Positions 3,368 to 59,800 of a stretch of 64,000 nucleotides of DNA are shown piece after piece. Made by a program: the position numbers and the translations under genes. The stretch is from Phoronis australis (Eukaryota; Animalia; Phoronida), in the NCBI GenBank assembly GCA_002633005.1, contig NMRA01000180.1, positions 36,518 through 100,517 of the forward strand. Reading direction: 5' to 3'. The notes below the pieces were generated by a model. It did not search any database. It was not told where the DNA came from and saw only the letters and a program-made list of their open reading frames with translations. Each line of letters starts with the position of its first letter. Position 1 is the first letter of the stretch.

Positions 3368-3508
3368 TTAACCAGATCCGCAAACGTATGAACAGTAGTT
3401 GTTACTGTTGGTCCCTTCATAGACCCAGCAGGTGGCGCGGTTGTCCGTGTACCGCCCAATATGAATGTGTTCTCCGCCAGTACAAGTCCTGGAACCGTGC
3501 CAGATGAC
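3368..3508 (-). CDS. SH3b-M15 gene exon 6 (H-I-H motif and stop)
   Basis: Acceptor CGTTACAG, VIWHGSRTCTGGEHIHIGRYTDNRATCWVYEGTNSNNYCSYVCGSG then TAA. Confidence 0.88.
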   Translation of the reverse strand, partial: VIWHGSRTCTGGEHIHIGRYTDNRATCWVYEGTNSNNYCSYVCGSG

Positions 3509-6500
3509 CTGTAACGAAGAATGCAAATGCTAAATTTATTTATACCAGGGTGGAGTCCCAACTATAGACATTTAGACGTGTCACATTAGCAGGCAATGCA
3601 CTTGTGGTAAGAAACTCTTGGTTAGCGAACGGAAACAACGAATTCTGGGTATAGGCCTAATCATGGGCCACGCACCATAGGGGCCCTGGGGGGGGGGGCT
3701 ATAGCCCACCACATTTTTCACAGCTACGTCACCCTTGGTCTGTGGGAGATGCACCACTTTTTTCAGTCTGCACCGCCCATGATAATGCAATACCTCACCG
3801 ATCAAGCACTTAAGTGACCTCTGTTTTGCTGGATTACCCTAGCCCTGAATATTTCCGAAACACTCGTGGTCTTGCATGATCTCATTTCTCACGCTTAAAA
3901 CATGGTATACGGAATGCACTTCAGATATGGAAATGGTACAGCAATAGAAAGGATAGCCAGTGGCTTGCACAAATAAGTCTACAACTGCGGTGCAAACGTA
4001 TTTGAGTACCTATTTAGGATTGTTTCACGTAACCGCTTACTGTTTCCCATAATATGGCTCTTAACTCATCGGATTGGCCAGATCTCTCACCTGGTAGTCA
4101 CGAGCGAGAACACCGCTTGATTTGATCTTCTGAAATATAGCAGCCCCAGAGCTTTGTCCGTCAATCCAGAAGTCAGCCGCCCTTCCGACATCGTGCTATG
4201 GACAGATAGGTGTGGCAATAGCGTGTCAAAGATATACATGTATGAAAAACTGAGTGCAGTGCATCAAATTCGTACATCAGATCAAAAAGTAAAATACAAT
4301 GTAGATCAGTTGCCGTTATAAAACTAGGTTAACTCTGAATAGAATACGAAAACTGTCAGATATTTGTTGCTTGAGGCATCTTGTTCATACGGATCGTGTT
4401 TTGCACCCAGTATGGTCTCAGGAAATAACAAGCACCTGCCTTTCAACGGTGTGACGAAGATCGCCCTCATGTGACCAGAGTGGCGACGCAAATGTCTAAG
4501 TCGTGGCAACAGAAGTTTCTGGTGTGCACACTATAGTGCGCACCCCGGAGTTAACCGCTTGTTGTAAAAATAATCATGGGTCTGTGAACGTAAATTCTAC
4601 GGGACAGCAAATGGCACTATTACCTACAATTTTTTATTGCCCCAGAATAGCGTTACAGGTTCCACCAGGTACTCATACATTGATATGAGGTCAATAAACC
4701 AATGTTTCCTCGAGGCCTGATAAAACACCGATCACTTCGCCACAATATCAACAGGCAACTTCACGTGGAAGTTCGTAATTTCCTTTCAGGAACACATCTC
4801 TGATGCATAATCAATCATGGCTCTCTTTAACAGCTTCCGTGTCAAAAAACCTTCATTTATTTCATTTCACAGGCGAAAGAGACGTAACTGTGATTAAAGT
4901 TCAATTTCAGGGCAATCATAGCCTTTTGGCCCAAAACTAACAAGTCAAAGTTTTATATGCTATGACGGTGCAGTAATTGCAATAAGCCAATTAGATGCTG
5001 CGTAAGAATTGGCATTGACAATGTATCTGGCTGAACCCGGGGGGCATGGATAATGTAAACTCACGTGAGATCTCCCGTTACCATTCCTGTCGCCGCTGGT
5101 TACCCATAATCGGGTGCAGAACAAGTCGGCTATGCGTTGTAGGTCTTGCTTAACTTTGCTGTCGGAGATACGGTAACCACGGTAGTCTACTCTGCCGCAA
5201 CCCGATTTGCCTAGAAGGAAAAGCATTGCGCTGAAGCATTATGTTTTTATTTCCAATACTCGATCACATGTTCGTACATTCCCTATGGAAAGGCAAATTA
5301 ATTCACTAGAAAATTTTCGATTTTTTGCGCCGAGGCTCCAAAAAAAATTCCACTTTTGCACCATACTTTTGAAGTGATTGACTTTGAATGGCAGTCGAAA
5401 TTAGAATGAACTGTACACCGTGACTAAAAGCTAAGAGAGAGAATACAAAGACAAAAATGTCACAGGCATAATGTTTGTAATACAAATAACAAACCGACTG
5501 AGCCACCGGAAGAACACTGAGCGGACGATCCGACTTTCAGGTACTTGCCGACTGTCCAGACACTCTGCAAAAGACAATTACATGTACATGTAGTTGCAAG
5601 GGAATAATATGACTTAAAAGTATCAACAATAAATTGTACAAAAGGATGTACTTTAAGTGAACATTGTTCACACCTGAGCGGATTAGATTGTGTAAATACA
5701 ATTTTCGTTGTTGCTGTTGTCGTTACCTTAGTCCCGTATGTCAACTTGAACCACTGGTATCCGTCTTTGGTAAGTCTGAGCCCAGCGTATTTGTAACATT
5801 CACCCCTGTTGAGCGTTGCTACTACACTTGCCCTGATGCTGGCTGAAACGTGTTTTGACAATAATGTCAGATTTTATTTCGTCGTGAATCGTAGTTAATA
5901 AGAGAGCATATTAGAAAATGTGATCATTATCCGTAGATCATTGCAACATAATTTCATCCCACGGTAAAAGTTTTAACACATCAAGTAGAAAACTTGAACT
6001 TGTAGAGTTTAATGCCGAAATCTGCTCACTGACTAATCTGTCGCCTATTGGGTCAAGTTTTAAATTTCAGTAAAAATGTTTTCGAAAGTAATATCCTAAC
6101 AACCACCAACATGACTCAACATTATAAATATTTACATTGCAGAACAAAATCCCAAGAACGATGTCACAATTTCTAAATTTTATTTCCTTCTTCGAGGTAT
6201 AAATCGGAACTTTTTAAAACTACATATAAGATCCTGTGCTAGAGCGACTTATTTTAAAACAACTCACTATAAAGTACATGTAGTTTCAATAATAGTGTTT
6301 GCACAACCATATATGGTATCAGACGATTGTTTTTGAGCCCGGTCAGCCATTTCTTATATCCGTTGTTCCGAATAAAACGGGGAAAATTTTGACATGTTTT
6401 GGTTTTTTATAGTCTTCAAAGGAGAATATTATTTCATAAGTTTGCATTGCACTATGTTCAAGATCAACGCAAGTTACACACTTTGAGTTTCCAAATCAGG

Positions 6501-7160
6501 GATTGATCGTGGTTTACATTTCTTTATGTGAATATTAATATTTTCTATAGAGGCCTCTAGATGCTCTCATTTTTTCACAATTCTGTTTTACCCACTTTTT
6601 GTCCACCTTTTCATGAGACGTCATGTAAAGCCCGGAACATCTCATCCGTAACACTTCGTATGTCATCTTTTCGTACCCTCAAAATCTCAGAGGCAAATTT
6701 CAACAGCAAGTCCTGTGATCCTTGAATTTGAGGCAACGAAAATATCAATGCATGTATGTACATGCAATATACTTTAATTACGAAATGCTTTGCATGTACA
6801 AAGTTTTGAAGAAGACATTAGAATGTGGTAAGCGTGAAGTTTGCATGCTAAATTTACACGATATACCTGTAAAAGTTGACTTAAACTACATGTACTTCAG
6901 TTCGCAGGACCCCCAAGAAGTGGTCAATTTCAAGTGACTTAGACTTAAGAACGACGTGGTTCAATTGCCCCAATTACTGATTTTGTCTTCAGTATGATTA
7001 TAGAGCAACGATAATGTATAATTGTTTTTCAAATACCTGAGCTTCTGGCATTGACGCCAGTTCCTGTTAAACACAAACAGGTTCCAAATTTCGGGTTGGT
7101 TCCGGTTATATCAGCCTCTGTTACAGCGAACAAACCGGCGAAGACGATGTACAATAGCAT
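3368..7160 (-). CDS. Six-exon gene for a secreted SH3b-like + peptidase M15 (LAS family Zn-metallopeptidase) protein, 233 aa; putative peptidoglycan hydrolase
   Basis: Exons (minus) 7160-7037, 5842-5727, 5564-5495, 5210-5065, 4195-4091, 3508-3368. All introns are GT..AG, phases 1,0,1,0,0 are consistent, total 702 nt ending TAA. Protein: MLLYIVFAGLFAVTEADITGTNPKFGTCLCLTGTGVNARSSASIRASVVATLNRGECYKYAGLRLTKDGYQWFKLTYGTKSVWTVGKYLKVGSSAQCSSGGSVGKSGCGRVDYRGYRISDSKVKQDLQRIADLFCTRLWVTSGDRNGNGRSHHDVGRAADFWIDGQSSGAAIFQKIKSSGVLARDYQVIWHGSRTCTGGEHIHIGRYTDNRATCWVYEGTNSNNYCSYVCGSG. Confidence 0.88.
4091..4195 (-). CDS. SH3b-M15 gene exon 5 (H-x6-D zinc ligands)
   Basis: Acceptor TGTCCATAG, HDVGRAADFWIDGQSSGAAIFQKIKSSGVLARDYQ, donor CAG|GTGAGA. 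Confidence 0.88.
5065..5210 (-). CDS. SH3b-M15 gene exon 4 (peptidase domain N-half, VTSGDR motif)
   Basis: Acceptor CCTTCTAG, ...LQRIADLFCTRLWVTSGDRNGNGRSH, donor CAC|GTGAGT. Confidence 0.88.
5495..5564 (-). CDS. SH3b-M15 gene exon 3 (end of SH3b-like domain and Gly/Ser linker)
   Basis: Acceptor TTTTGCAG, SVWTVGKYLKVGSSAQCSSGGSV, donor G|GTTTGT, phase 1. Confidence 0.8.
5727..5842 (-). CDS. SH3b-M15 gene exon 2 (SH3b-like core)
   Basis: Acceptor TTTCAG, SIRASVVATLNRGECYKYAGLRLTKDGYQWFKLTYGTK, donor AAG|GTAAC. Confidence 0.88.
7037..7160 (-). CDS. SH3b-M15 gene exon 1 (signal peptide and start of SH3b-like domain)
   Basis: ATG at 7160, hydrophobic MLLYIVFAGLFAVTEA, then CLCLTGTGVNARSS; donor CAG|GTATT, phase 1. 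Confidence 0.85.
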
Positions 7161-7233
7161 TTTGCTTAATGAGGCCTCAATACTTGATAATCACTCCAAA
7201 GCACTCTGATATTATTTTAAGGCCGATCGCTGA

Positions 7234-7240
7234 TTTTATA
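7234..7240 (-). promoter_or_regulatory. Candidate TATA box of the SH3b-M15 gene
   Basis: TATAAAA on the minus strand about 75 nt upstream of the ATG at 7160; the equivalent position in the duplicate reads TCTAAAA. Confidence 0.45.
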
Positions 7241-8136: not shown

Positions 8137-9530
8137 GACCGAGTCCAGGTAATAACTTCATAATTTGGACATTGCCTTGGAAGAACTCGCTTGTTGAACA
8201 AAAGTAAATAAAAGTAATGTAGAACTATGTAGAAAAGACCTATTGTAATTGAATATAGACCGGAGTTCCAACTGGATTGACACAGGTGATGTTTTGCCCA
8301 CAGGTCATATCTCATCCACATGCTGCCAGTTATTAATGGTCATTGTCTATTTTTTCAATGCTCATACTAGAAAAAAATCCTTTAGGTGGAAAATTTACCA
8401 GAGGCGCGTTCACTGACGCTAGTTACCCGTAAGTGAAAGTCAGAGAGATCACAAGCCTCCCATTCAATGCCTGGTGATTTATTTCAAAGACGCCAAGCTA
8501 CAATGTAGCAAATAACGAGCCGAACAAGACAAAATCCTGTCATTACATTGCATAATTTTCTGAAAAAAAGACCGGCTTTCGTTTTCGTGTTTCGAGGTGA
8601 ATACGATACTTTTTAAAAATAAATTCCTACGGATACATGTACCTTGTGCAAAAGTGGCCTATTTTAAAAGAACTGAAGTTACAGATGATAGAAAAATAAT
8701 GTTTGTACCATACATGTACATGGGGCATCTAAACGCATCACAGTATATTTGAACCTGGTCAGTCGGTTCGCAGATCTGCTGTTCTGAAATGAGCGAAATT
8801 TGACATGTTCTAGGTTACATACCGCTTAAAGGACAATTATTCTTTCAACAATGTACTTTGTACTATAATCAACATTAATACAAGTCATAAAATTTAGTTT
8901 TCAAATCAGTGCCTGATCGTGGGTTACATTTCCTTACGTGAGTAATAAAAATTCATGCCGATATGAGTGTTCTCGTTGTTTCACGCTTCTGTTTAACCGT
9001 GTATTTGTCCATGTGAACGTCGTATATGTGACGTCACGTAAACATCACATCCGTGCGTCTGCGTTCCCTCAAGTTTCCTTCGGAGGTGAATTTCAAAAGC
9101 AAGTCGTGTAACTGAAATTTGAGGTAACGACATTAAACCTGTATGTTTGTACGAAACCTAAAGAAATGCTTTGCCTGTACAAGGTTTAATAGTGAAAGAG
9201 ACGACGACGATAATCGTATATGATAGGCGGTTGAGTAAGGGGTGCACATGCTAAATTCACACGGTATATTGTTACAAGAAAACGTGAATTTCTTCAATTT
9301 GTGTACGAACTACACGAGTGAGAACAATAGCAGTTACCTAAGTACGGTGTGTTGTTTTCAGCTGGCCATCCGGCAAATGGTCGTTCAAGTGATTTAACCA
9401 CATGACTAAATGCGGATCAGATTATAGCACAACGATATCTTGAGGGGGTTTCTGATTTTTCATCGTTATCGTACGATTCACAACGTACAACCAGAAAACT
9501 GGTAGAATAACGTTGCTTTGTTTACAATAC

Positions 9531-9644
9531 CTGAACATCTCGTATTGGCGTCAGTTCCGGTTAAACACAAACAGGTTCCCGATTGCGGGTTGGTATCGCA
9601 TATATCAGCGTTTGCCACAGCGAAAAATCGAAGTACCATCGCAT
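9531..9644 (-). pseudogene. Decayed duplicate of exon 1 of the SH3b-M15 gene
   Basis: Homologous to 7160-7037 but 10 nt shorter, so the homologous ATG (9644) is out of frame. An ATG at 9639 gives MVLRFFAVANADICDTNPQSGTCLCLTGTDANTRCS with the GT donor intact. Part of the duplication ~6190-7270 / ~8590-9740. Confidence 0.7.
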
Positions 9645-12600
9645 TTTGCTAAATGATGCCTTTGCAGTTTATAATCAGTTGTTTGAATACTTTTAAGGCC
9701 GAATTTTAGATTTACGTCTGTACAGGTACCATATGGCCAAGACACAATGAGTTGCAAATTACACGTCATTGCATTAACAGCAGATTGATTTCAACTGTCA
9801 ATATTTCACCAATGATTCCTCCCAAAACAAGTAGGTTTTAATAAATGTTCGGTGGTTTAAATGGCCACGTGACCAATCCGACCAGCCCCTCTGATGAGCA
9901 CAGAAACTTCACTCTCTCTTATATTTCCGAAACTTTCGCTCCTACTGAAAATCAAAGTAGATCAAGAAAAAAGAAACGCAAAATCGGCACTTTTCACCCC
10001 AAAACCATCACTTCCCTGTCGATGCTCGACTAAAGCCAATTAGATTCTGAAAGGAAATTTCATACCAATTCCAAAATTGTGCTTCACAATAGCTGTCAAC
10101 CAGGTATATTTTTCTGCAAATCTTGTTTGAGGGCTACCTGAAATCGTAGCCAATAGCGGAGTTGCAACGTCGCCATATTGGAAATGGGTCAGAATGTTGC
10201 ATTGTGGTTAAGCCGGTAAACAAGTACGTCGGCAAGCGTGGGGGCGAACCGGCCACAGGGAGGTTATACGTGTTGTGTGCCTGGCATGCTATAATACCAG
10301 TTAGCGAGATAAAAAATGTAGGAACTACCTGTTTCCCAAGGATCAAAAACTGCGTTAAACATGAGTCAGAGTCATCGGTTGAGCTGGTAGCAAAGGCCGA
10401 CTTCGTGAATTCTTTCCGACTTCGTAGCATAAAATATGCAGCGCTCATTTTGAGGGCGGCAAGAAAACGTATCTTGGAAATTGCCCAACAATATCTCCCT
10501 TCAAAGAAGCAGTAACAAATACTCCACGACGGTTGGTAGTGAAAAAAAATGTTTTCGCTTGACCAGAACCACGCCAACATGAGCAATTTTGAGGATAATG
10601 CCTCTGCCCAATCACCTGTTCTAGGTCAACTCACTTAACGTACGCACACTATATGCATTACGCGCTAAGATAAAGCGTGCAGAATATTATTATTTGCTTT
10701 GTACAAAATTGTGGTGCATTGCTATCAAAATTCGTTGTTAAATTACGATCATTTTTCTTAAAATTATGTTGAAGTCCCAGGGCGAAATCTTGCCGACAAA
10801 TGCTTAGCTACCGGTCTCGCAATTGTCGATAGGGCTTGAATTCGTGAATAGGAATACAGCTACGACTCAGCAAGTTACCTGAAATCCTCCTCAAGTTTTC
10901 CAAATAGCGTCTCTAAGATTTTTAAGTTCTTGTGGAGTCTGGATTAACTGCAGATTAAGTCCAAATCTGCGCTAGATTGTAGCCCGCAACACGAGAAAAA
11001 TCTTTGGAGGAACACACGTTGTTGTCACGTGACGTTTGTTTTAAAGTTTGTATGCGTGTGTGTGAGAGAAAGAGTGCGTGTGCTTGTCATCAGAGTTCAT
11101 TTACCAGAGTAATGTAATGATCTAGGTGTGCATTGTATCCAAAGAAATTAAGTTAAGCAGTCAAGCAGAGCGTTTTTTAATAATTAGCTTAGCACTTGCT
11201 GGCTTCATCTGCTAAAAATGTTCGAGTTTTTTTTTCGGTAAGACCTATATGTCACTCACTGAGTCGCCGGGTGAGTGGATGCGTGACCGTAGTGTAACAG
11301 CTATTTTCCGGAAGATTTGAGGTGTAAAGGTGCGAAGTGGGTCATTTCGACCTTAAAAACACCAATTATGATTAGTTAAATAATTTCTCTTAAAAATAAT
11401 GCAAAAGTGTTTTACGGTATTTTGAAACTTTCGGAAATTAGTGCCAATATTTATTTGCCGATGCTATGTTACCCGTTTCATGAATAGATAGTTCCCGACT
11501 AAATGTCTTCGATGACAGCCGGTACATTATGCAGCGCGCGCTTCTTGGCCGCTTGCTAACACTGGTCGATTTTTTTTTTATTAGTCTTCGATTCACGGTT
11601 TTCACGTGTACAAAGAAGTTTGGATTCCAGTTGAGGCCGGAGAAGATCTGTACCGGAAAGAAACCGTGAATGCAGTCCCGCTGACAAGTACGCTGCGTCT
11701 GTTTTCAAAGTCCAGACCCGCGTAGTGGGGCACATCCCTCGCAAGAGCAGCAAAACTTCTGCGTTCTTTTTGAATGGCGGCGTAAGTTTGAAGTGTATAC
11801 GGACATAATGGTGAGGGTCGTGGTCCACAAATTCAGGACTGTCGGATCTTTCAATTGATAAATTGGAGACGTTAGAACTGTAGGTAAGGGCATTTTTCGC
11901 ATGTTGATGGGCTGGGCGCTTACTTTAGCAAAGTCTGAAAACGCGTTGGGGCACTTGTTGGGGCATGGGCGCTTATTAGGGCGAATAGCGGCAGAATTAC
12001 ATACAGCAGCGTAGTACAATGCACACATATCACACGTCGTGCAAACCAGTCGGTCATTCCATTTACCCTAATCAATCCCAATAGCCTTTGCGCACCCTAC
12101 TTTCCGGACATGCGCAATCGTTAAATCGATTCGGTTGCAACTCCGCTATTTCTCAGTCGCTACCCAACAATGCTCAATTGCAACAGGGGGCCGCCATTTT
12201 GAAGAGGAAGGCAGCTGTAGCCCAGCAAGTGGTCTTTTTATATTCTCATCATGTTCACAAGTACAAAAAAGTCGCATTCAATATTTAACTAAAAATCCAC
12301 TCAAGTCTGGCCTACCCTAGATTTTAGTATTTTGGGAGTGCACTGGCCGCGGCTGCACCTTAACTGTTGAGTGCCACCTAACGGGGAAAACTAGCGTGGT
12401 TCTTTCACTGGCAAGGAGGCTATTCGGAGAATTCTCCTCGTGGTGTCGCTGCTGTACTAGTGGTGATTGAATTGCGTATGTGTCGCTGTCTGCATGCAAA
12501 CAGCTACTGGTAAAAAGACGGAATTATTATCAAAATGCTTCGTCGCTATAAGCCCTATCATTGCTATTTTCCCTGGTGCAAGTCTTCGACAGGTGGTCAC

Positions 12601-41895: not shown

Positions 41896-44800
41896 CCATT
41901 ATTATTATTATCATTATGAATCATAGTCGTTGTTTTCCTGATACAAAAACCATCGCTGACTTTGATTTTGAGACCGGGGTGACATTTGGTGCGTCCCCTT
42001 GTGAGAACCATGGTTGTATCTCCTTTGACTGGACGTTTGTGAACATTTGCAGGTGTTTTCTTATAGATGTGACAATGGCGGCCAACGACTTTTTGGATCT
42101 CTCTGACCACCACTGTGACCCTGGTGGCATTGTTGTACATGTACCTTTGCCTCTATATCTTCAGAGTTTCTTATTCTTTTTTTCTGAAATTTGTCAAGCA
42201 GGTTTCTGTAATGGAAATGACAGCATCGTTCCAATTTTTGACGTACTTCGCGCCAAAAATGGCTTATCAACACCACGTCGCAGTCGTGGGCGCCTTTCAA
42301 CTCTCCTAATGTTGCTCATGATTACTTTTTGGCGCCCTGCAATACCAATTTGTGGATGCAATTCGATTCTCTTTCTATTCTCATAGGAAAGTTTGTGTTA
42401 TGTTTTCTATGCCTGAGTAACATAGTATGCATACACAATGTATTACTACTATAGATGCTCCTTTAAATGTACAGAGTACTGTAAATTTGCAGAATTAATG
42501 TTTATCATATTAATGCGCAGATATTTTAAAATGTGTTTATGAATTTGTCAATCTCAATATGGCGTGGGAAATATGTTATAAACATGCTAAGTCACGTTAA
42601 CACGCCATCTGTAGGAGGAGAAGAAGAGCCAAATTGTCGTATTTCGAAATTAAGGTTAAAATATGTAGGACCCTGTCGACAGATCTGTGTGTTTTGCCAA
42701 ATATCTAAAAAAAGTACAGATTTTAACTGGGTAGAACTATAAATACCCTGAAAGTATATAATCCAGCAGTAGAATTTTATTTTTGAATTTTCACCAATAC
42801 ATTATTAATTGAGTCACGACACTATGACTTTTTAGTAGAGTTGGTAAAAAAAAACGTACCAGTGACATGATCACCATTATGAAAATCATGTAAGTCCGAT
42901 TTTAACTGTTTCTCATGCAAAAGAGAAACAATTTAAAAGCAATTCCTAACAGTGTTACACAATACCGCCACATATTGCTTGAGTGAATTCCAAGCGCGCC
43001 GTACTTGGCAACTGACAGGTAAGGTGCATTCAGCGATTGCCCGTGATTTCCATTTCTCGTGATCACTGTGTTTGGCAAAGTCACCCAGTTATTTAAAGCA
43101 TCCCAAAGACAGCTTCTTTTTGCCTTTTCGCCTTAGGTGATTTTGCGTTTTTCGTTAGATTAGCGAGTTGGTCACGCGATATTTATAAAGTCTTGTTTCT
43201 ACACACGAGATCATAAATATATTAGATTATTACATGTTCTCAGTCGTTATCCCCCGTTATCTAGGGCTCTCGTGGATTTTGTAGAATTATCACCCTCGTG
43301 GCGTTACTATTTATACCACATACTGAACGAGAAACATTGCAATGAATCGATCTACCTTTCTCGACTCGCCTCGGCTTTGTAACTACTTTCTATGTCAGAG
43401 GCCCGGGGTCGGAGGTCGCGACCATTTAAGAAAAGCCGAACTATTTTTGTCAAATAATGCTTTTACTCAAAATCAATTGAAAATTTAAACAAAACAGAAT
43501 TAAGTGAATATATAAATTAAGGTTTAACAACTATTATAGCTTACTACATATTTTATCACGCTGCGCTTCGACCGGTAAAATATCGTCTGCTAAAATAGAT
43601 TACCAATAGTAACTGAGTATCATGCTCAAGTCAAAGGATCCCGACGACACGATACCCGCATTCAAATTGGAGATCGGTGATTTACACAAGAGAGAACACG
43701 AGAAAAAAATCACAGAATTGAGATATAGTTTTTATGGAAATTATGCGTCTTTTTTCATAGCGTATAAATGTCGGTACAATGTCCTTTGCTGAACATGCGA
43801 TTGTTGCGCGTGTTCATTTAAGTATCTATTTTCACGTTCGATGACGTCAGCCGCTGAGTGGTGTAGTGGTAAAGTCGGCGACTCGAAACTCTTGAAGCCC
43901 GGGTTCAAACCAGGCCTCGGTTTCCCGCCAAAATGATATCTCACTAGTGAGATAACTAAATGGGTTACACGGTTGTATTCGATCAGTCTTCATTACACTG
44001 TATTTGTGGAGTGATCCAAGCATGAAGCGAGTCGGACACCTGGCGCTAATATTCCTGATTTGAACGTGTGGGATAGCATTGCTTAAGCTGCCATTTTTAT
44101 CGGGCTTGTTCCACATTGTTAGCTGGTTCCATCATCCATCTACATGTATGTTTCATAAACTCACTCTCCTTTTCGGCACAGGACATTGAATAAATCTTTA
44201 GAACGACGGCACTACCTGTTGAGACAAGGTTTTATTATTTTATGATAAGGGCGTCGTTCGCGAAAGTTTACTGGCTACTGCCACGTTATTCAAAGCAGTA
44301 AAAGCAAGAAGTAGGCTGATATGAGATGCTCGGAATAAGTTTATATCGAACTTCAGTTTCTTTGGACATTAAACACCACAGAGCATGACGCGATTTCTCA
44401 GTCGTGGGCCAGCTGGAGTTTCATCCCCGTTGTACTGTATATCCTCGGTTTGTGATAACGGGTTTCAGAATACATGTTGGAAACAAGAAGCTAGTTCTTA
44501 TTCTCGTGGCCCTGACTTCTGACCGGACTTTCAAATATTCTGAGCTGCGTTCCGTAGACATGGACGATAGTGTTATCACATGCTTTGATCGTAACGCAGG
44601 GCAATATCTCACAAAGACTTGGGTGATCAAGCCTATTTAATGCATACATGGAACCGACGGAAACCTGGCCATCATATCAAGAATGTGTGTGTGTGTGTAC
44701 ATATATGCTTAAAACCATTTGTGTACAAACACACGAACGCGCACACAATGCACACACACACACACACACACACGAAATTATATATACTTTATTACTGGCT

Positions 44801-47800: not shown

Positions 47801-50800
47801 TCGTAGTGGTCATTTTGATATCTTCTACGGACTATTCAGTGTTGTTTGACAGAGGGACTTTTTTAATAATTGCAGGCGGTTTGGTACACGTTGTTCCAGG
47901 CTGCGCATGTGGGTCCATTGCACTTATCACCTGGAAATATTTTTGTGCTATATGAATACATAGTTAAAACCGAGCTGTTGACTCAAGGGTCTAGCAGTGT
48001 GGCTCGAACCCACGACCTCGAGTAAAGAAGGCGGGCACCATCACACTGGGCCACAATGCCTCCTCCTCAGATGGACGTTTCTGGCTGATATGAACTGAAC
48101 CGACAGACGAATTTTGATAAAACATGACACAGAAGAACACCATTCGATTTTCGAAGGCATTCGAGCACTGAAGCACCTCATACTAGCAGGTATAACTCGC
48201 AGATTTCAATGAAATTTTACTCAACAGTATATGATGACAATACGCCGACACCATTTGATTTTTGGGCTGATTCCATAACTGTAGCACCTCCTAATAAGCT
48301 CTTAGAAACATATCCTATGCGATGCACCATGGGCTCATGTCAACGTCACCGCGTTGCTCCGTTATTTAATACTTCCTGGGGAAGAACATGCACAGATGAT
48401 ACATGTATCTAAAAAGCAAGCAACGGATTACAAGGGAAATTGACAAAGAGGTGTGGAACGGCATAGCAAGGAGTCCAGTCGGGTAATTTTGACCTCTTAA
48501 TTGTAATTCTGTCCTGTTGTCCTCTCAACTGTTAGATAACTCGAACATCTGTTCGTAGTTTGACACAAAGGTGTAGGGCATCGCAAGAGCTGGGCAATTT
48601 TTACTTTGTGTTGCACCCCAAGACAAGTGGGACTAGGATTTTTAGTAATTTGAGGAATTTATTTCCGGATGAAAAAAGAACTCGTCGCTGTACTTCAATG
48701 AAACTTTTGAAAAATGTTAACTCTTATATATTTAAACTACTGTGTGCGATGCGCAAGGTGGGCGCTAATCGACGATGTGCGATGCTGGTCTCCATTTTAA
48801 GACTCTTCTATTTTGCTCTCTTTTGTTCTTCTTCTTAGCACCGACGCCTTTCTTATTCCTGAAGATTGCGGGATCTTATTCAAAATCGCATTAAGACAGA
48901 CGGGCGCAGACTGGAAACTTCAAGCAGTAAGTACGGATTTGACCAAAATGTGCTAGGCGTCTGTAGAAATGTATGTTTTTGTTATATTGTGCATGGTTAC
49001 AGCAGATTTTTACACTTCTGTAAACACAAAATAGTAGTACCAAGTGCAATCAATACTTTTCTTCAGAGATGTTCATCTGTCCGTTTGATAAACGAAGCCT
49101 ATTGGCTCTGACATAAGCAGATGCTATCGCATGTCTTTCGCATTTTGGGCACTCGTTCTCATCTGAATCTCCGCCCGCTATTTGTTTCACAATAAACCAA
49201 ATTATACACTTTCTTAACCGCTTTTTGCATGTCGGGTACGTCTTTTTCATCGCCAGTCGGAGGTTCACGATCAAGGTACATGTACATGTTCATGACCGTG
49301 TGAATTTGCACCATTCTCCTATAGTCAAATTTGTTCTGACAGCATGAACTGTACAGTATGATAAATTCCATTTCAATTCACTGTCACCTCGACCATCTCT
49401 CAATGCATAAGTGTGTGCTCTTGAAGGGTCTGTACAAGAATAAACCAGCAGTATCTAAGCGAATCCGTCATAAACGTTAGATTGCTTCTGTCCTTTCGAT
49501 CGGCATGCATTACAAGCAAAACTAATCTATTAACTTTCGTCCGCCGGTATCCTGCTTTGCGTGCAAGTGCAGACAGGCCAACCAATATTGACACTATTGA
49601 TGTTTCCATATGACAGGTGAAAATTACGGACTACGACCGATCGAACACACAATACCAGTTCCACTGCGATTGCTCGATAAATGAACTGAACCCGTACGAA
49701 ATTAAACGGACCGGTAGGTACATGCACTTCGCTTTGTTTAGCATACTGAAAACAGAAATCATACTTGGTCTTTTCCTCTTATAAAATGATCTTTTAGCAT
49801 GCGTTAATGTTTCCGTTACCAAAACGAAGACAAAACAACCAGTACCTCAAAAAAACGTTTCATTGCGAATTGAAGTTTGAAGAAACCGGGTCTACGCATT
49901 GCCTGTATCTTGAACTGTCTGCTCATTCGGCAACCATCAATTCAAGATCGGATGAGAGTTATATGAGCCCTAAAGAAACACCTCAACACTGACATCGAAA
50001 CAGCGGCAAATGTGTCCCTTTAACATTTAAGAAGCAGTTTGCTTTGCTTCCATCTATACATGTAACACCACTGATCATTTCAGATCTGTGTCTAAAATAT
50101 AGTCTCTTTACTTGAAAATTGACTAGAACGTTCACCAATTTTCTGGTGTATTTTGAATAAACTAACAAAATTTGTTCTCAAATAATGCAGCGCAATTGGT
50201 TTTTTAAAAGCACGAGTCCAGTATGTGTTCGTAGATTACATGTACACTCTAGGGAAAATTTTGCTTTATTTCCTTGCTTCCAAAATCATTAAAGTGTACA
50301 TAAAGAAAATATGTAAAACAAGTACGAAAATCGTTGATTACACCAAACAATACAGCATTATACTTCGTTTTCGACCTGGAATTTATTGTATTTTTAACTG
50401 CAGTGAACGGTGGATGGACCAGCTTCGGACCCTACACTCGATGCTCCACAACTTGCGGCACTGGTAGACGGACCAGACAGCGATCTTGTACCAATCCAAA
50501 GCCTTACAATGGCGGAGCACATTGTAGTGGCCACAGCATTGAAACCAAGTCATGTTTTACAAAGAATTGTCCAGGTATATCCATAATACCAGGAATTTAA
50601 TGCCTTCCTGATAAATATAGATTATTACATGGCGAAGTCGTTATCCCCGTAATCTAGAGCCCGAGTGGATTTTGGAGAATTATCACCCGAGGGGCGTTAG
50701 CCCCGAAGGCGATAATTCTTCAAATCCACGAGGGCTCTAGATAAGGGGGATAACGACTGAGAACATGTAATAATCTATTTGTACCACATACTAAACGAGA

Positions 50801-53800
50801 AACGCTGTAATGAATCGATTTACCTTTCTCGACTCGCCTCGGATTTATAACTACTTTCTATGTCAGAGGCCTCGAGTCGGAGGTAGGGACTTTTTAAGAA
50901 AACCCGAGTTATTTTTGTCAAAATAATGTTTTTACTCAAAACCAATTGAAAATTTCAACAAAACAGAAATAAAGTAAATCTATACATTAAGGTTTAGCAG
51001 CTATTATACCTTAATTAACATTATATTACGCTAAATTTGGACCGGGAAAATATCGTCTGCTAAAGTTAGTTCAGTACCACAGGTTGCTGAGTATAATGCC
51101 CAAGCCAAAGGACGATATCAAAGAACGAATGCTGGTGTCGTGTCCCGACGACACGATCCCCGCATTCAAATTGGAGACTGATCCATGATTTACAAGTGAG
51201 AGAAAATGAGAGGCAATGTTAACTGAATTAAAATATCGTTTTATGGAAATTATGCGTCTTATATTTCATAGCGTATAAATGTCGGTACAATGCCCTTCGT
51301 TAAACATGCGATTGTTGCACGTGCTCATTAAACTCGGACAGCGGTAAAACTCTGACAAGTCTAAATAAACGTCAAATATATTAACAATCAAGATGCCTTT
51401 CCACTAAATGAAAAGATTATTCACTTCATTGAACAATAGTAGGGATTTATTTATCACCTCACTTGAATTACGACAAAGTTTCAACACATATGAGGCATAC
51501 TCAGCACCTTATGTCGCTCTGCCGTCTACTTCGCGTGGTGATTTTGAAAGACTGCGGTACGTACGCTGGCTTTTCCAAGTTTTATTTAGGTCACTTGGTC
51601 ACTTGTCATGTAAATCAATTTGAATTTGAATTTTCTTGATGCATAACTCATCAGTATGCTGTTTTATGTGTTAATTTCAATAGAAGAACGCACAAAAAGC
51701 ACGCTTTAATCAAAAAACGGGTGTCCGAATTTCCCTTCCAACTTTTTGTACGATGCAGGGAATTTCGGACACCATGTTTTCAGGCTACTAGTAAACTTTT
51801 CTTGGCGTTTTCTTGAGAGTTTCCTAATCAGGTGATGACCTTCTGTGTTAAGAGGTCAATTCAAAACTTAATTTGTCAACAACAATGGCGCTGTTTACCA
51901 CATGGGTTGCACACAAATTGGTAATGGCGGATATACTTTTACGTTATTTACATGTATGTACCCAGGACATGATGATTTCTTAAATTTATTATTCATCTCA
52001 TGATAAGACAGCTAAATAATACGTAAATTCATTTTTGAAATCATAATGTTCTATTATGTGCTTTGTCCGAGTTTTACCTATTCAGAATTTGCTGGTCCGA
52101 ATTTCCCCAACAGTCTGTCCGACTTTCCCCACCTGCATCCGAATTTCCCCGATTTTGAGCATTGTTATTATTGTTAAAATTCGAAGGCATTGAAACTGAA
52201 GTACATGTATTAACAAAGTATCTCATTGGATGGTTTCTCAAAAGATTTGCGTATATCCCATTACTCGTCTAATGTTATTAGCTGACACATAAACTTTCAG
52301 TGGCAGGTAAGCAAGTCGAGCTAGGTGGTTTCGTCCGAATTTACCCGAACTTCTATTTTCACGATCGATGACGTCAGCTAAGTGGTGCAGTGGTAAATTC
52401 TACGACTCGAAACTCTTGCAGAGCGGTTTCGAAACCGGCCTCGGTTTCCCACCAACGTGTTATTTAACGGTTGTATTGGCCATTCCAGACTGACATTGTG
52501 GTATACCTTGTATAGTGCAGATAGGTTTTGTCCTGGATGTAACAGAAGAAAAATGTCGTCTAAACCAAACATTAAACGGGCATCTGCAAGTATTCGTGAA
52601 CATTCACGTCTGTTAATTCAAGTCGGGTTATTATAAAACGAATACGTTTGCAAGCTCTTCGGGCGGGTACGAATTCTTCGAATACTGTACACCTCCACCA
52701 AACGTGTGATTTGTTTTGTAATATTGTCACCATCCACTGCCGTAATCAAAAGTTTTGATCTTGTTGAGGCCCAAATGTGAAATTGTGGACTTGAAATGAG
52801 ACGCAACCATGAGGCAATTTGCAATGAACAGGATATCCAAACCCAAATTGATATGAATTGCGACCGGGGAGTATTTTGTGTGATAAACTTGGGTCCACGT
52901 GCCTGTTGTATACCCCATATCGCTTGCTCCGTGGCATCTTCTGAACCTTAAATCGATGTAGAAGATATTTACTTTAAACGAGATACGAGAATCGTCTTCC
53001 AGAGGTATGCGTGAATGAATGGTGTACGTATTTGTTTGTTTGTTTCTGTGATTGTTTGTAAATGATAATAAATACCTTAAAAAAGGATTTATAAACTGTT
53101 CTTCGTTGGTACATTATTCAGTTGACGGAGGCTGGAGCGGTTGGTCAGGTTGGTATTCATGTACAGTGCACTGCGGCGGAGGTACGCAAACACGTGTGCG
53201 CAGCTGTACAAATCCTCGACCTGCTTACGACGGTTCAACATGTCCTGGGTCTGCCAAAGAAGTACGTGACTGTAACACTCATAACTGTAGTGGTAAATAT
53301 TCACTTTCATTACTTGTTTTGATGATTTGAGATTATGGTAATCTTAAAATGTCGTCTCCTTGAAATCTTTATGCAAGAGTACTGTACATTTAAATTTCAT
53401 TCAAGCGACGAATGAAAAACTAGCATTTTATAAACGCAGTGCAGTACTAAGATAACCTAAAACATCATTTGAATAGTGTGCCATTATACAATGTACATGT
53501 AATTATAAAAATTATTTTAGTTGACGGTGGGTGGACGGACTGGAGCCATTGGTCAGACTGCTCGACGTCGTGTGGCAACGGTAATGAAAGTTCAAGTAGA
53601 AGCTGTACCAATCCTGCACCCGCACACGGCGGGCAAGGATGTGTTGGGAACGAGACGAGAATCAGGAAATGCAAACTGGAGGAATGCCCTGTAAACGGCG
53701 GTTGGAGTCATTGGAGTGACTGGGGTCCGTGCTCGATATCGTGCGGGGAGGGTACACAAACCAGCTCGCAAAACTGCAGCAACCCGGCGCCAGCCAACAG

Positions 53801-56800
53801 CGGGCTTGACTGTGTCGGAAACAGAACGAGAACAATTTCTTGCAAACTGAGCGAATGTCCAATAGATGGCGTATGGACGGCTTGGTCTGAGTGGAGTTCT
53901 TGTTCTCAGAAGTGCGGAGACGGAATCCAGAGGAGCTTCAGGAATTGTTCAGATCCAAAACCACAGCATAATGGGCTATATTGTCCAGGAGAAAACCAGC
54001 GAAATCTGTCATGCATAATCAAAAACTGTTCAATAGACGGAGGCTGGAACTCGTGGAGTCAGTGGAGCACTTGCTCCACGTCTTGTGGAGTGGGTAATCA
54101 AACAAGACATCGCAAATGTACCAGTCCTCTTCCAATGTTTGGAGGGCAGGATTGCGTAGGCAATAACTCAACAATCAGAGAGTGTAATGTTAGAGACTGT
54201 CCAATAAATGGGTCTTGGAGTGTCTGGGCTCCATGGACCGACTGTTCGACAACATGTGGTGGCGGAGTGCAAAATCGGACGAGAACGTGTACAGACCCAA
54301 CACCAAAATTTGGTGGGTGGAACTGTAGCGGTAATAATTCAGAAATACGAATTTGTGGATTAATAAACTGCCCCGTTAACGGAAGTTGGGGACCTTGGAA
54401 AGAATGGGGTCCCTGTTCCTCTTCTTGTAGTCAGGGCCTGCAAACTAGGAGCAGATTTTGTGACAGCCCAGAACCGTCGTTTGGAGGCAACAACTGTTCC
54501 GGTAACTATACTGAAGTGCGTTCGTGCATCGTGAAACATTGTCCTGTTGACGGCGAATGGGAATCTTGGAGTAACTGGGGTGGATGTTCTAGAACTTGCG
54601 GTGAAGGTATGCATTTCAGATTCAGAACATGTGGTAACCCTGCGCCACAATACGGGGGACGAAACTGCTCTGGGAACGATACCATGGCACAACAATGTAT
54701 CAAAAAGCACTGTCCAGTCGATGGAGGATGGACGCCATGGAGTGGGTGGGGTACGTGTTCTAGTAAGTGCGGCGTAGGGGTGCAGGTCAGAAACAGAACG
54801 TGTATAAATCCAGCGCCAATGTATGGAGGACAAAATTGTTCCGGCAACAATACTATAACACAGGTGTGTTTCTTAAAAGACTGTCCCGTAGACGGAAAGT
54901 GGTCAGCTTGGAGTAACTGGGGGAAATGTTCCAAAACTTGCGGTTCAGGTGTACGTGTGAGGAATAGAACATGTGACACTCCTGCACCGGAATATGGTGG
55001 AAGAAATTGTTCTGGTAACTCTACGATGATGCAGTCGTGCTTCGTAAAACATTGCCCTGTCGACGGATGTTGGGAGGATTGGAGTGAATGGGGCGCATGC
55101 TCAAGAACCTGTGGTGAAGGGATTCAGGTCCGGAATAGAAAATGCAATCGCCCGGTACCAACGTATGGAGGGCGCAATTGTTCCGGCAACAATACTTTGA
55201 CACAATCGTGCCTCGTAGCACACTGCTCAGTCGATGGAGGTTGGGGGGCTTGGAGTGAGTGGAGTGCTTGCTCAACAAGTTGTGGCGCAGGTGTTCAAGT
55301 CACCAAAAGAAGATGCGATAACCCTGCAGCAGCTTACGGTGGACACAACTGTACAGGTAATGGCACTGACACAAAATTATGCTACGTTATTGAGTGTCCC
55401 GTTGACGGCGGATGGACTTCGTGGAACGGTTGGAGTCGATGTTCACTCTCGTGTGGGACGGGGATGCAACAGAATACAAGAATGTGTTCCAATCCTGCCC
55501 CGGCTCATGGGGGAAAATATTGCATGGGAAGCAAAAGGGTTACCCGGTCGTGTCGTCTTAGACACTGTGCAGTCGATGGTGGATGGACCTCTTGGGCTGG
55601 TTGGTCGTCGTGCTCTGCATCATGCGGCAGCGGTGGACAGGAGCGCAGAAGAACGTGCACAAATCCTGAACCCGCTCATGGCGGCACAAGCTGTAATGGG
55701 AATAATACTGCAACACAAAAATGTTTTCTCCAACATTGTCCAGGTTTGTTTTCGATTAAGTAAATTACGTTGTTTCAAAAGACTGGGTTATTGGATAATT
55801 TAAATGTTGAGTTCCAAGAAGTATTTTTGTTTTTAAGAATAGAATTGTTTTATGCTAATTGAAAGCAAGTCCGAAGGTTGTTCGTCGAATTTTAACCGAA
55901 ACTAATAAAACGTTGGGTTGATGTTGGTGTAAACATTTAACCATCATAATTTTCAGTGAATGGAGGTTGGAACACTTGGAATAGGTGGGGTGCGTGCAGT
56001 GCGACATGTGGTGGCGGTGTGCAGGTCAGGAACCGCACTTGTAATAAACCTGAGCCCCAGTACAACGGAACAGACTGCGATGGTGCTGGTTCCGAAACTC
56101 TCGGCTGCAATTTCCATGATTGCCCAGGTAAAATGTTTCTACTCATCAGTCGAATCAAATCGCAATTTCTTTTTGAAATTGTCTTAACTATGTTGTTAGC
56201 ACACCATGCGCTGTAGATTTTCAACAAAATGACTTCAACTATGCGCTTTTGAAGTGAATGCATTTTTGTATTATACATGTATTTGACGAGGTGGGAATAC
56301 TTGGGGATCATGGGGAGATTGCACACTAAGTTGTGGAGGAGGTCAGCAGTTGCGTACATACAGAAGGATGTGTACATTACAAACCCTACTCCCTCCCATT
56401 ACGAGGAAGATTGCAAGGGACAAATTATCCTGGCTCCGACAAAAACTAACGAGTCTGGAGCACTCTTAACTGTAGATGTAAATATTGGCATTTATTACAT
56501 ATTTTTTAATTTGATAAAATGTTATCTTTTTGCATTTTTATGTATTAGCGTATGGCATACTTAAGGTACATTCATACTGTATGGTGAAGTGAAGAGGGTG
56601 GGATAGAAAAGTTAACTTATAACCTCGTCATACTTAACAAAGAACATGATACAATCAAAATCATTTCAGTTGACGGCGGTTGGGCTGACTGGAGCCAGTG
56701 GTCAGACTGTTCGACGTCGTGTGGCAAGGGTAACGAAAGTTCAAGTAGAACGTGCTCTGATCCTGCACCCGCTCATGGCGGGCGAAGATGTGTTGGGAAG

Positions 56801-59800
56801 GAGACGAGAATCAGGAAATGTAAGCTGAAGGAATGTCCTGTAAACGGCGGATGGAGTCAATGGAGCTACTGGAGTCCGTGCTCTAAATCGTGCGGGAAGG
56901 GTACACAAACAAGCTCCCGAAACTGCAGCAACCCGTTGCCAGCCAACAGCGGGCTTGACTGTGTCGGAAACGGTACGAGAACAAATTCTTGCAAACTGAG
57001 CGAATGTCCAATAGATGGCGTATGGACGGCTTGGTCTGAGTGGAGTTCTTGTTCTCAGAAGTGCGGAGACGGAATCCAGAGGAGCTTCAGGAATTGTTCA
57101 GATCCAGAACCACAGCATAATGGGCTATATTGTCCAGGAGATAACCAGCGAAATCGGTCATGCGTAATCAAAAACTGTTCAATAAACGGAGGCTGGAACT
57201 CGTGGAGTCAGTGGGGCACTTGCTCCACGTCTTGTGGAGTGGGTAATCAAACAAGACATCGCAAATGTACCAATCCTCTTCCAATGTTTGGAGGGCAGCA
57301 TTGCGTAGGCAATAACTCAACAGTCAGAGAGTGTAATGTTAGAGACTGTCCAGTAAATGGGTCTTGGAGTGTCTGGGCTCCATGGACCGACTGTTCGACA
57401 ACATGTGGTGGCGGAGTGCAAAATCGAACAAGAACGTGTACAGACCCAACACCAAAATTTGGTGGGTGGCACTGTAGCGGTAATAATTCAGAAATACGAA
57501 TTTGTGGATTAATAAACTGCCCCGTTAACGGAAGTTGGGGACTGTGGATCGAATGGGGTCCCTGTTCCTCTTCTTGTAACCAGGGCCTGCAAACTAGGAG
57601 GAGATTTTGTGACAGCCCAGAACCATCGTTTGGAGGCAACAACTGTTCCGGTAACTATACTGAAGTGCGTTCGTGCATCGTGAAACATTGTCCTGTTGAC
57701 GGCGAATGGGAATCTTGGAGTAATTGGGGTGGATGTTCTAGAACTTGCGGTGAAGGTATGCATTTCAGATTCAGAACATGTAGTAACCCTGCGCCACAGT
57801 ACGGGGGACGAAACTGCTCTGGGAACGACACCATGGCACAACAATGTATCAAAAAGCACTGTCCAGTCGATGGAGGATGGACGCCATGGAGTGGGTGGGG
57901 TACGTGTTCTAGTACGTGCGGTGTAGGGGTGCAGGTCAGAAATAGAACGTGTATAATTCCAGCGCCAATGTATGGAGGACAAAATTGTTCCGGCAACAAT
58001 ACTATAACACAGGTGTGTTTCTTGAAAGACTGTCCCGTAGACGGAAAGTGGTCAGCTTGGAATAACTGGGGGAAATGTTCCAAAACTTGCGGTTCAGGTG
58101 TACGTGTGAGGAATAGAACATGTGACACTCCTGCACCGGAATATGGTGGAAGAAATTGTTCTGGTAACACTACGATGATGCAGTCGTGCTTCGTAAAACA
58201 TTGCCCTGTCGACGGAGGTTGGGGTGATTGGAGTGAATGGGGCGCATGCTCAAGAACCTGTGGTGAAGGGATTCAGATCCGGAATAGAAAATGCAATCGC
58301 CCGGTACCAAGGTATGGAGGGCGCAATTGTTCCGGCAACAATACTTTGACACAGTCGTGCCTCATAGAACACTGCTCAGTCGATGGATGTTGGGGGGCTT
58401 GGAGTGAGTGGAGTGCCTGCTCAACAAGTTGTGGCGCAGGTGTTCAAGTCACCAATAGAAGATGCGATAACCCTGCAGCAGCTAACGGTGGACACAACTG
58501 TACAGGTAATGGCACTGACACAAAATTATGCTACGTTATTGAGTGTCCAGTTGACGGCGGATGGACTTCGTGGAACGGTTGGAGTCCATGTTCACTCTCG
58601 TGTGGGACGGGGATGCAACAGAATACAAGAATATGTTCCAATCCTGCCCCGGCTCATGGGGGAAATAATTGCATGGGAAGCAAAAGGGTCACACGGTCGT
58701 GTCGTCTTAGACACTGTGCAGTCGATGGTGGATGGACCTCTTGGACGGGTTGGTCGTCGTGCTCTGCATCCTGCGGCAGCGGTGGACAGGAGCGCAGAAG
58801 AACGTGCACAAATCCTGAACCCGCTCATGGCGGCACAAGCTGTAATGGGAATAATACTGCAACACAAAAATGTTTTCTCCGACATTGTCCAGGTTTGTGT
58901 CCGATTATATTAATTGGGATTTTCAAAAGACTGGACACATGGTTCTATAAAATCACGTGGTTAATGAAAATTTTGTTCTTTGATTTTAGCTGCAACCAAC
59001 AATGCGTCTGAAGTCTGCTGGTGTAAACATTGAATCATAATCATATTTTTAGTGAATGGAGGTTGGAACAGTTGGAATGAGTGGGTTGCTTGCAGTGCAA
59101 CATGTGGCGATGGTGTGCAGGTCAGGAAGCCCACTTGCAACAAACCTGAGCCCCAATATAACGGAACAGATTGCATTGGCGATGGTTCCGAAAGTTTCAG
59201 ATGCAATTTCCAAATTTGCCCAGTTAGACTTTGTCTGCTCATTTTTGAAATTGTCTATGTTGTTACCAAACCACGCGCTGTGGGTTTTCAACAAAAATTC
59301 CCAAATGTGTTCTCTTGCAGTGAATACAGGAGTTGTTTTGTAATTCAGTAAACGGGAGTTGAAATACTTGGGGATCATGGAGTGACTGCCCATTAATTTG
59401 TGACGAAGGTCAGCAGCTGAGTAATAGGACAAGTTTATGTATAACTCAACCCCCGCCCATGACGGGGATGATTGCAAAGGACCCAAAGCTTGTTATCGGG
59501 ATTGTCACAGTAACTACTGCCCAGGTATGACCTGGCAAGTGGTTGTCGACGTCACAACGGCTGAGATATATGCTACTCATTTTTCCTATTAAAAGCACCA
59601 AACAATTTGCATTTGAATTTGAATTGCGATAACTTGACAATAAGTGCGCCAACTTTCCATTACGCTCGTTCTTTTCAGTCATGATCGCTCACCTTCGCTG
59701 GCGTCAATCAATACCAAAAATCATTAGGACTAACTCGTGGTCAGGATAAGTTCATAGTACCACCATTGTCGCGACAGATCTTTTTCCTACGTTTCTGGCA

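Follow-up and report, generated by a model that had tools for sequence, protein, structure and literature searches.

A spliced Phoronis australis gene encodes a predicted secreted SH3b–M15A protein whose peptidase domain is of likely bacterial origin

In a 64,000-nucleotide stretch of the Phoronis australis genome (NCBI GenBank assembly GCA_002633005.1, contig NMRA01000180.1, positions 36,518 to 100,517; hereafter the window, whose own numbering is used throughout), we have followed a minus-strand gene of six exons that encodes an SH3b module and an M15-type peptidase domain. The gene is real, spliced and transcribed. We hold with reasonable confidence that its predicted secreted product is a zinc peptidase acting on bacterial peptidoglycan, and that the M15A domain was gained once from bacteria, before annelids, brachiopods and molluscs separated. 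What we consider new is that a bacterial sister subfamily of the peptidase can be traced and that the two-domain architecture was probably assembled within animals.

Results

Gene structure and transcripts

The six exons join into a 702-nt coding sequence that translates into 233 amino acids and a stop (Table 1). Such a hidden gene had been proposed in an earlier, sequence-only reading of the window, and its coordinates turned out to be exact: all five introns are GT-AG, and R145, S151, H152, H153, D160, H201 and H203 stand in the joined frame at the positions claimed. GC content is 0.51 in the coding sequence versus 0.33-0.45 in the introns. Intron 2 is open in frame and so gives rise to a 137-aa open reading frame (ORF) at 5460-5873. 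The predicted product is a basic protein of 23 kDa (computed pI ~9.5) with 10 cysteines, among them the animal-specific C196, C214, C226 and C230 of exon 6; it begins with a signal-peptide-like segment (hydropathy 2.5), and its frame stops right after the peptidase domain, without a Hint domain.

The predicted junctions are borne out by RNA-seq runs filed under the same species label. In the stranded runs X2 and X3, each of the five junctions is crossed by 57-134 spliced reads in roughly one fifth of the run (for intron 3 the sum of two allelic rows, the second of which is read in each run as a synonymous allele at 5209), and a 713-nt contig from X1 covers all six exons. X4 gave 2 reads, at the intron 4 junction only. 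Elsewhere in the window X4 has 870 reads versus 1342 and 1246 for other runs, mostly on repeats, which serves as a rough same-organism control. Since X4 is near-silent at the gene despite these comparable repeat read numbers, expression looks restricted to a tissue or condition, as far as this rough control goes. Thirteen exonic differences are listed, and 11 more lie beyond the listing; of the 13, 8 are synonymous, whereas 28% would be expected (p 0.012). The remaining five, which change the protein, lie together in exon 5 (window 4098-4152, codons 167-185), with two changes at codon 185 among the reads, and this cluster may mark a variable surface patch.

Catalytic domain

By its sequence, the C-terminal domain is a LAS domain of M15A type, related to Peptidase_M15_3, and its predicted Zn site of H153, D160 and H203 is intact. 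The LAS/M15 zinc peptidase signature of H-x6-D plus H-x-H (PMC6027127) is present as H153-x6-D160 and H201-x-H203, and all 19 ingroup rows have S142, G143, D144, R145, S151, H153, D160, H191, H201 and H203 unchanged. H203 is taken as the third ligand because of the H-x-H pattern described in that paper, the register being our reading; bearing on this register, MAFFT aligned the outgroup histidine with H201, not H203. Against a hidden Markov model (HMM) made from the bacterial subfamily alone, the P. australis domain reaches 117.7 bits and the highest of 1000 shuffled sequences 5.3; with an HMM of generic phage M15_3 proteins, the domain reaches 21.2 bits and the highest shuffle 7.4.

The earlier assignment to the LAS/M15 peptidases with an intact predicted Zn motif set therefore stands. 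Its placement with VanX, VanY and Ply500 does not, and we move the domain to M15A/Peptidase_M15_3, on the side of the Streptomyces albus G DD-peptidase and MepK/YcbK. In the VanX/VanY/Ply500 branch (M15B-D), the base is a conserved acidic residue three positions ahead of the third His ligand. The corresponding E200 is not conserved, being E, Q or I in animals and P, Q, A or E in the bacterial relatives, and no VanY or M15_4 Pfam match is listed for the animal and bacterial homologues scanned.

Profiles were needed to see these relationships, since the pairwise match to one generic phage M15_3 protein was not significant (63 of 1000 shuffles scored as high). Of 6 single exons or ORF pieces, none matched a Pfam family. 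Exon 4 alone scored with none of 8 candidates from a 5.8-billion protein search, with nothing in the Atlas or PDB sequences and with 0/596 in metagenomes; its one phage match (E 6) was judged to be chance. The back-translated motif HHxxGRAADF hit 9 loci in viral contigs, none with a convincing M15 frame by tblastn.

For the fold we used an AlphaFold2 model of the homologue from the annelid Owenia (mean pLDDT 71.7). Its catalytic domain superposes on the Zn DD-peptidase 1lbu with a middling Z of 6.7 (rmsd 3.3, 101 residues aligned), and an Atlas model of the same protein gives M15_2/M15_3 matches of YcbK/MepK type with TM 0.62-0.70. Aligning exons 4-6 on P0001 (a protein found through the SH3b module, below) or on a phage protein gave misalignments, and a fold of P0001 made without an alignment (pLDDT 47) was not used.

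SH3b module

The N-terminal domain, which had been called SH3b-like, is an SH3b module by sequence: Pfam SH3_3 (PF08239; cut-off 27) matches the Owenia homologue with 37.9 bits, and the P. australis domain gives 94.7 bits against the SH3b of Owenia. The Owenia model matches bacterial SH3b structures with Z 9.9 (9ovi) and Z 9.2 (4krt), and a Foldseek search listed only SH3-like matches. An exon 1 query retrieved one protein, P0001 (46% identity over 110 aa); a profile of P0001 and exons 1-3 then retrieved 1451 proteins at E <=0.001, of which the best 150 were examined, and 174 proteins were compared overall. Among these 174, the best 13 single-domain matches to the SH3b score 45.6-97.4 bits and all have a Cys-x-Cys start, compared with 36.7 bits for the best bacterial-looking SH3b.

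The partner of this module varies. The same M15 domain stands beside it in three of the close proteins (Owenia P0018, chiton P0164 and P0010), an i-type lysozyme in Dreissena P0128 (Destabilase, 87.9 bits), an SLT/g-lysozyme-like domain in P0046 (above cut-off) and P0083 (below it), and a domain without Pfam match in P0021 and P0038. SH3b is also described on annelid and bivalve i-type lysozymes (PMC11083476) and on mollusc PGRPs (PMC9570181, PMC11810698), and a mature start of Ala|Asp-Ile-Thr is common to the P. australis protein and an annelid SH3b lysozyme (PMC11083476). These sequences suggest that this SH3b is a mobile animal module, whatever its ultimate bacterial origin.

A second LAS-like family is fused to SH3b in Dreissena, Biomphalaria, Mercenaria and Pinctada. 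We observed that this family (P0001-P0004, P0011, P0014, P0016, P0039, P0093, P0126) occurs in bivalves, gastropods and the sea star Patiria, has invariant His/Cys motifs with SH3b or Cys-rich repeats attached, has a relative in Actinoplanes and gives weak M15_3 matches only. It is possibly a separate transfer. That the P0001-type domain belongs to the same family as the P. australis peptidase was rejected: it scores 4.6 bits on the bacterial-subfamily HMM, and hhalign aligned the SH3b part only. By eye, the second domain of P0021 and P0038 is possibly a third LAS-type family.

Animal and bacterial relatives

A profile combining Owenia, exons 4-6 and part of P0010 picked out 15 of 2167 candidates: Owenia, three Lingula proteins, the chiton Liolophura, P0010 (JGI), two ENA fragments and seven bacterial-type proteins, one named as Acidobacteriota. 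Catalytic-domain identity with the P. australis protein is 73% for Owenia, 65-70% for Lingula, 68% for Liolophura, 55% for P0010 and 44-52% for 13 bacterial-type domains, levels that fit a lophotrochozoan host. The Owenia and chiton homologues lie on scaffolds of 35.8 Mb and 58.4 Mb. The three Lingula copies carry Cys-rich repeats in place of SH3b.

In a pattern scan of a 185,579-species genome collection, 5 of 30 matches passed, two of them short and three full-length loci, from Blastocatellia, 'Clostridia' and Acidobacteriota metagenome-assembled genomes (MAGs); the 'Clostridia' label is doubtful, given the closeness of that locus to the Acidobacteriota copies. Similar scans found relatives at 3 of 47 matches in metagenomes and at none of 23 matches in viral contigs. 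The bacterial genes are intronless and lie among ordinary bacterial neighbours. Each of the 12 bacterial-type proteins scanned scores above the Pfam M15_3 cut-off; PG_binding_1 accompanies the domain in 6 of the 12 and LysM or a GH46-like domain in some, whereas SH3 is found in none of them. The subfamily is rare: among 301 genomes sampled in the phylum of the centre genome it occurs in that genome only, next to one generic M15_3 match. As side observations, the bacterial members (L136:3002-4369, L147:445-2073 and L137, L138, L142 and L143) are multi-domain wall hydrolases in large low-GC MAGs of 6.3-10.3 Mb, and genome G007 has two copies of the gene.

Because SH3 is missing from the 12 bacterial relatives, no viral relative was found among the 23 matches and this animal SH3b also occurs on lysozymes, the layout was probably built inside animals and not imported whole from an endolysin. 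A bacterial endolysin-like architecture acquired as one unit is accordingly improbable. Intron 3 has phase 1 and lies at the domain boundary, where the Lingula proteins have their Cys-rich repeats in place of SH3b; this position fits exon shuffling.

Phylogeny

Two trees of the peptidase domain were built. Tree 1 has 42 rows (7 animal, 12 bacterial and 23 of 59 generic phage M15_3 rows; L143, a near copy of L137, was left out), and tree 2, made with a more careful alignment, has 31 rows, including the 12 closest of 29 generic M15_3 rows. Animals and the bacterial subfamily form one clade in both, with 100/100 and a very long branch in tree 1 and 100/99 in tree 2. From these sequences, the kinship of the animal and bacterial domains is firm; the tree alone gives no direction. 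In tree 2 the animals are monophyletic (99/99) inside paraphyletic bacteria and sister to a Blastocatellia-like group (71/92), a nesting absent in tree 1.

The direction is suggested by two other features. The loop from Arg to His has 14-16 residues in 28 of 29 generic M15_3 rows, 12-16 in 12 of 12 bacterial rows and 7-9 in 7 of 7 animal rows, and cysteines number 4-6 in animal versus 0-1 in bacterial rows, four of them being animal-only. The shortened loop and the gained cysteines favour transfer from bacteria to animals. Scoring on separate animal and bacterial halves points the same way for 28 of 29 generic rows, which score higher on the bacterial half, a count not independent of loop length. 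Since an annelid, a brachiopod and a chiton all have homologues, the transfer is likely ancient and followed by vertical inheritance, and the simplest reading is one transfer before those three lineages split, followed by losses. The sequence-only reading had suggested horizontal acquisition and domestication with introns and extra cysteines; a likely bacterial origin of the peptidase, the added cysteines, the introns and the expression agree with this, but the acquisition appears not to be specific to the lineage of P. australis.

Coordinates and other features of the window

Upstream of the gene lies a degenerate duplicate of its 5' part (Table 1). The exon 1 copy has a 10-nt frameshifting deletion, no copy of exons 2-6 was found beside it in the window, and it appears silent, with no reads at 9548-9788.

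Table 1. Parts of the gene and of its upstream duplicate (window positions)
Feature	Positions	Strand	Description
Exon 1	7037..7160	-	aa 1-41; hydrophobic signal-peptide-like start, predicted cut after ~residue 16; SH3b start with Cys-x-Cys pair
Exon 2	5727..5842	-	aa 42-80; SH3b core
Exon 3	5495..5564	-	aa 81-104; SH3b end and Ser/Gly linker
Exon 4	5065..5210	-	aa 104-152; M15A domain start, SGDR145 (R codon 5088-5086), S151-H152
Exon 5	4091..4195	-	aa 153-187; predicted Zn ligands H153 (4195-4193) and D160 (4174-4172)
Exon 6	3368..3508	-	aa 188-233 and stop; invariant H191, H201; predicted Zn ligand H203 (3463-3461)
Intron 1	5843..7036	-	1194 nt, phase 1, GT-AG; junction reads 120 (X2), 108 (X3)
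Intron 2	5565..5726	-	162 nt, phase 0, GT-AG; junction reads 57 + 89 (X2, X3)
Intron 3	5211..5494	-	284 nt, phase 1, GT-AG; at SH3b/peptidase boundary; junction reads 90 + 108 (X2, X3)
Intron 4	4196..5064	-	869 nt, phase 0, GT-AG, directly before H153; junction reads 134/81/2 (X2/X3/X4)
Intron 5	3509..4090	-	582 nt, phase 0, GT-AG; junction reads 72 + 79 (X2, X3)
5' untranslated region and putative promoter	7161..7240	-	read ends cluster at 7193-7194; TATAAAA, a TATA-like sequence, at 7240-7234
Degenerate 5' duplicate	8748..9677	-	promoter and exon 1 copy ~9677-9526, 75% identity; intron 1 part 9187-8748, 66%

Three further observations concern other parts of the window. At 53451-60224 on the plus strand, two near-duplicate single-frame blocks of ~770 and 807 aa contain tandem TSP1 repeats (Pfam TSP_1 at 13 stretches of the first block), followed by more TSP1 exons and a transmembrane-like end. 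At 43220-43310, reads of all four runs join opposite strands, which suggests a transcribed inverted repeat or an element like a miniature inverted-repeat transposable element. One low-depth X1 contig joins 45622-45724 to 48838-48928 over a 3113-nt GT-AG skip and hints at a spliced plus-strand gene.

Discussion

Based on these results, we suggest a plausible mechanism for the P. australis protein. The signal peptide would direct the export of the basic 23-kDa protein, and its SH3b module would attach it to the wall of bacteria; peptidoglycan binding by this module is proposed by analogy with other SH3b proteins. In the active site, Zn2+ would be bound by H153, D160 and H203, with R145 stabilising the transition state and one of two invariant histidines, H191 or H201, serving as the base. 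The protein would then cut a bond in the stem peptide or in a cross-link, most likely in the manner of an endopeptidase, and bacteria would be lysed or digested in a restricted tissue or condition. MepK, an Escherichia coli M15 enzyme, is an endopeptidase that prefers 3-3 cross-links (bioRxiv 10.1101/2021.02.12.430937). After the transfer, the catalytic domain would have been joined to existing animal wall-targeting modules, namely SH3b in P. australis, Owenia and Liolophura and Cys-rich repeats in Lingula, and it would have lost part of the loop and gained four cysteines.

Several points weigh against this account. The named animal species with a homologue number three and come from a word- and length-limited search, so that the single gain with many losses is something we infer. 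The 12 'bacterial' tree rows include 6 without organism name (P0167-P0172) and 2 metagenome contigs. The root of tree 1 falls among the animals and sets the bacteria apart (81/99); the AU test does not reject a monophyletic bacterial group (p-AU 0.311), the root is unstable, and the branch to the outgroup is very long. In a scan of the homologues, as distinct from the joined P. australis protein, all animal members stayed below the Pfam M15_3 cut-off (PF08291, 23.2 bits): Lingula scored 18.9-21.8, the chiton 13.5, P0010 12.8 and Owenia not at all. These low scores may explain why the animal proteins are annotated as 'lysozyme' or uncharacterised. In the Owenia model, the catalytic part has a pLDDT of 50-85 per 10-residue block, and the N-terminal domain of Sonic Hedgehog (ShhN) nearly ties with 1lbu (Z 6.2 versus 6.7). 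Activity, Zn binding and ligand geometry are predicted from family and motifs.

The protein could share this origin and yet be non-lytic, as a D,D- or L,D-carboxypeptidase, a muropeptide scavenger or mostly a binding sensor that trims peptidoglycan fragments and tunes immunity or symbiont tolerance. The closest solved structure, 1lbu, is titled not only as a Zn DD-peptidase but also as a muramoyl-pentapeptide carboxypeptidase, the bond cut differs among M15 members (PMC6403190), and mollusc SH3b-PGRPs are described as recognition receptors (PMC11810698). We nevertheless find this unlikely, because the siblings that carry SH3b are lysozymes and the bacterial relatives are fused to PG_binding_1, LysM or GH46-like domains, a kind of fusion common among lytic enzymes; in NCBIfam, too, a bacterial member comes nearest to the endopeptidase MepK, at E 0.0013 and far under the cut-off.

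The other two alternatives concern origin. It is quite improbable, in our judgement, that the domain descends from an old eukaryotic LAS lineage, an offshoot of Hedgehog-N/Hedgling, and that the bacterial subfamily received it from animals or shares a deep ancestry with it. The three full-length loci in the 185,579-species collection and the single centre genome among 301 would suit such a history, as would the root of tree 1, the p-AU value and the near tie with ShhN. Against it, the Pfam matches listed for the animal homologues at E up to 0.5-1 do not include HH_signal, the bacterial members have the longer loop of generic type and lack the extra cysteines, their branches are more diverse in tree 2, and all those scanned pass M15_3. 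We give still less credence to a recent, lineage-specific transfer of a whole phage or bacterial SH3b+M15 endolysin, which is suggested by the endolysin-like layout and by endolysins among the SH3b structural matches. It is contradicted by Owenia, Lingula and the chiton, whose homologues span three phyla at 65-73% identity, and by the lack of SH3 in 12 bacterial relatives and of any relative among the 23 viral matches. Moreover, phage M15 proteins are ~29-42% identical to a bacterial member over part of the domain among the matches listed (25 rows), and the SH3b reaches 97 bits with animal modules versus 37 with the best bacterial-type one.

Lysozymes and PGRP amidases are the animal enzymes commonly described as acting on bacterial walls, and bacterial peptidoglycan enzymes kept by eukaryotes include the dae amidases. 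Bacterial wall hydrolases have reportedly been domesticated in eukaryotes as Trichomonas NlpC/P60 and mite LytFM, and an aphid peptidoglycan-recycling enzyme is said to be a domesticated bacterial wall enzyme as well; g-type lysozymes have been linked to myxobacteria (PMC11576321). M15_3/M15_4 domains with Cys-rich repeats in Trichoplax, Ciona, Oikopleura, Branchiostoma and fungi are given as likely transfers in PMC7379824, whose gene-transfer supplement also describes the Lingula 'lysozyme 1(-like)' proteins A0A1S3IU05, A0A1S3ITZ8 and A0A1S3KGF4 as a Hedgehog/DD-peptidase fold with Cys-rich repeats. The available part of that paper does not link the Lingula proteins to a bacterial subfamily or describe a test of them. 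Since domesticated wall hydrolases are known as a kind and M15 domains were already listed for Trichoplax, tunicates, amphioxus and Lingula, the present case is less surprising than first thought. Our literature search found nothing on the activity or donor of this animal M15 family (the supplement of PMC13342648, outside the search, may list these genes), none of six accessions of the family in the main text of papers, and no report of any animal M15 zinc peptidase tried on peptidoglycan.

The comparison with known systems shows what is particular to this gene. With MEROPS M15A/PF08291 (1lbu, phage M15A endolysins, MepK/YcbK) the protein shares the LAS fold, the SGxR arginine, H-x6-D and H-x-H. 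It differs in its SGDR signature, short Arg-to-His loop, invariant VI[WHRK]HG histidine and four added cysteines, and the gene differs in having introns, a signal peptide and an animal SH3b, with the animal members below the Pfam cut-off. The Lingula proteins have the same catalytic domain with another targeting module. Invertebrate SH3b lysozymes and mollusc PGRP amidases resemble it in combining a signal peptide, a Cys-containing SH3b and a domain acting on peptidoglycan (PMC11083476, PMC9570181, PMC11810698), whereas its own catalytic domain is of LAS zinc peptidase type and is neither muramidase nor amidase. Like the domesticated wall hydrolases, it appears to be a bacterial peptidoglycan enzyme acquired and kept by a eukaryote; unlike them, it belongs to the Zn LAS peptidase class and has apparently been re-coupled to animal targeting modules. 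The gene offers a small candidate, predicted to be secreted and probably stabilised by disulphides, for which a bacterial sister group can be traced and mutants are readily chosen, and a transferred catalytic domain may be domesticated through swaps of targeting modules.

The Hedgehog N-terminal domain is alike in LAS fold and Zn motif (PMC6027127), but the animal homologues of our protein lack an HH_signal match and Hint, have wall-binding partner domains and are ~50% identical to bacterial M15_3 proteins. As Hedgehog itself has been proposed to be a bacterial import (PMC6027127) and the fold is shared, repeated capture of LAS domains by animals bears on its origin. We put forward tentatively, leaning slightly to the doubtful side, that marine invertebrates hold an arsenal of secreted, wall-peptide-cutting Zn peptidases as a counterpart to the c-, g- and i-type lysozymes, in which at least two, perhaps three, captured bacterial LAS domains ride on interchangeable SH3b or Cys-rich modules; the P. 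australis gene would be one such capture, from a rare Acidobacteriota-associated M15A subfamily, retained at ~70% identity across three phyla.

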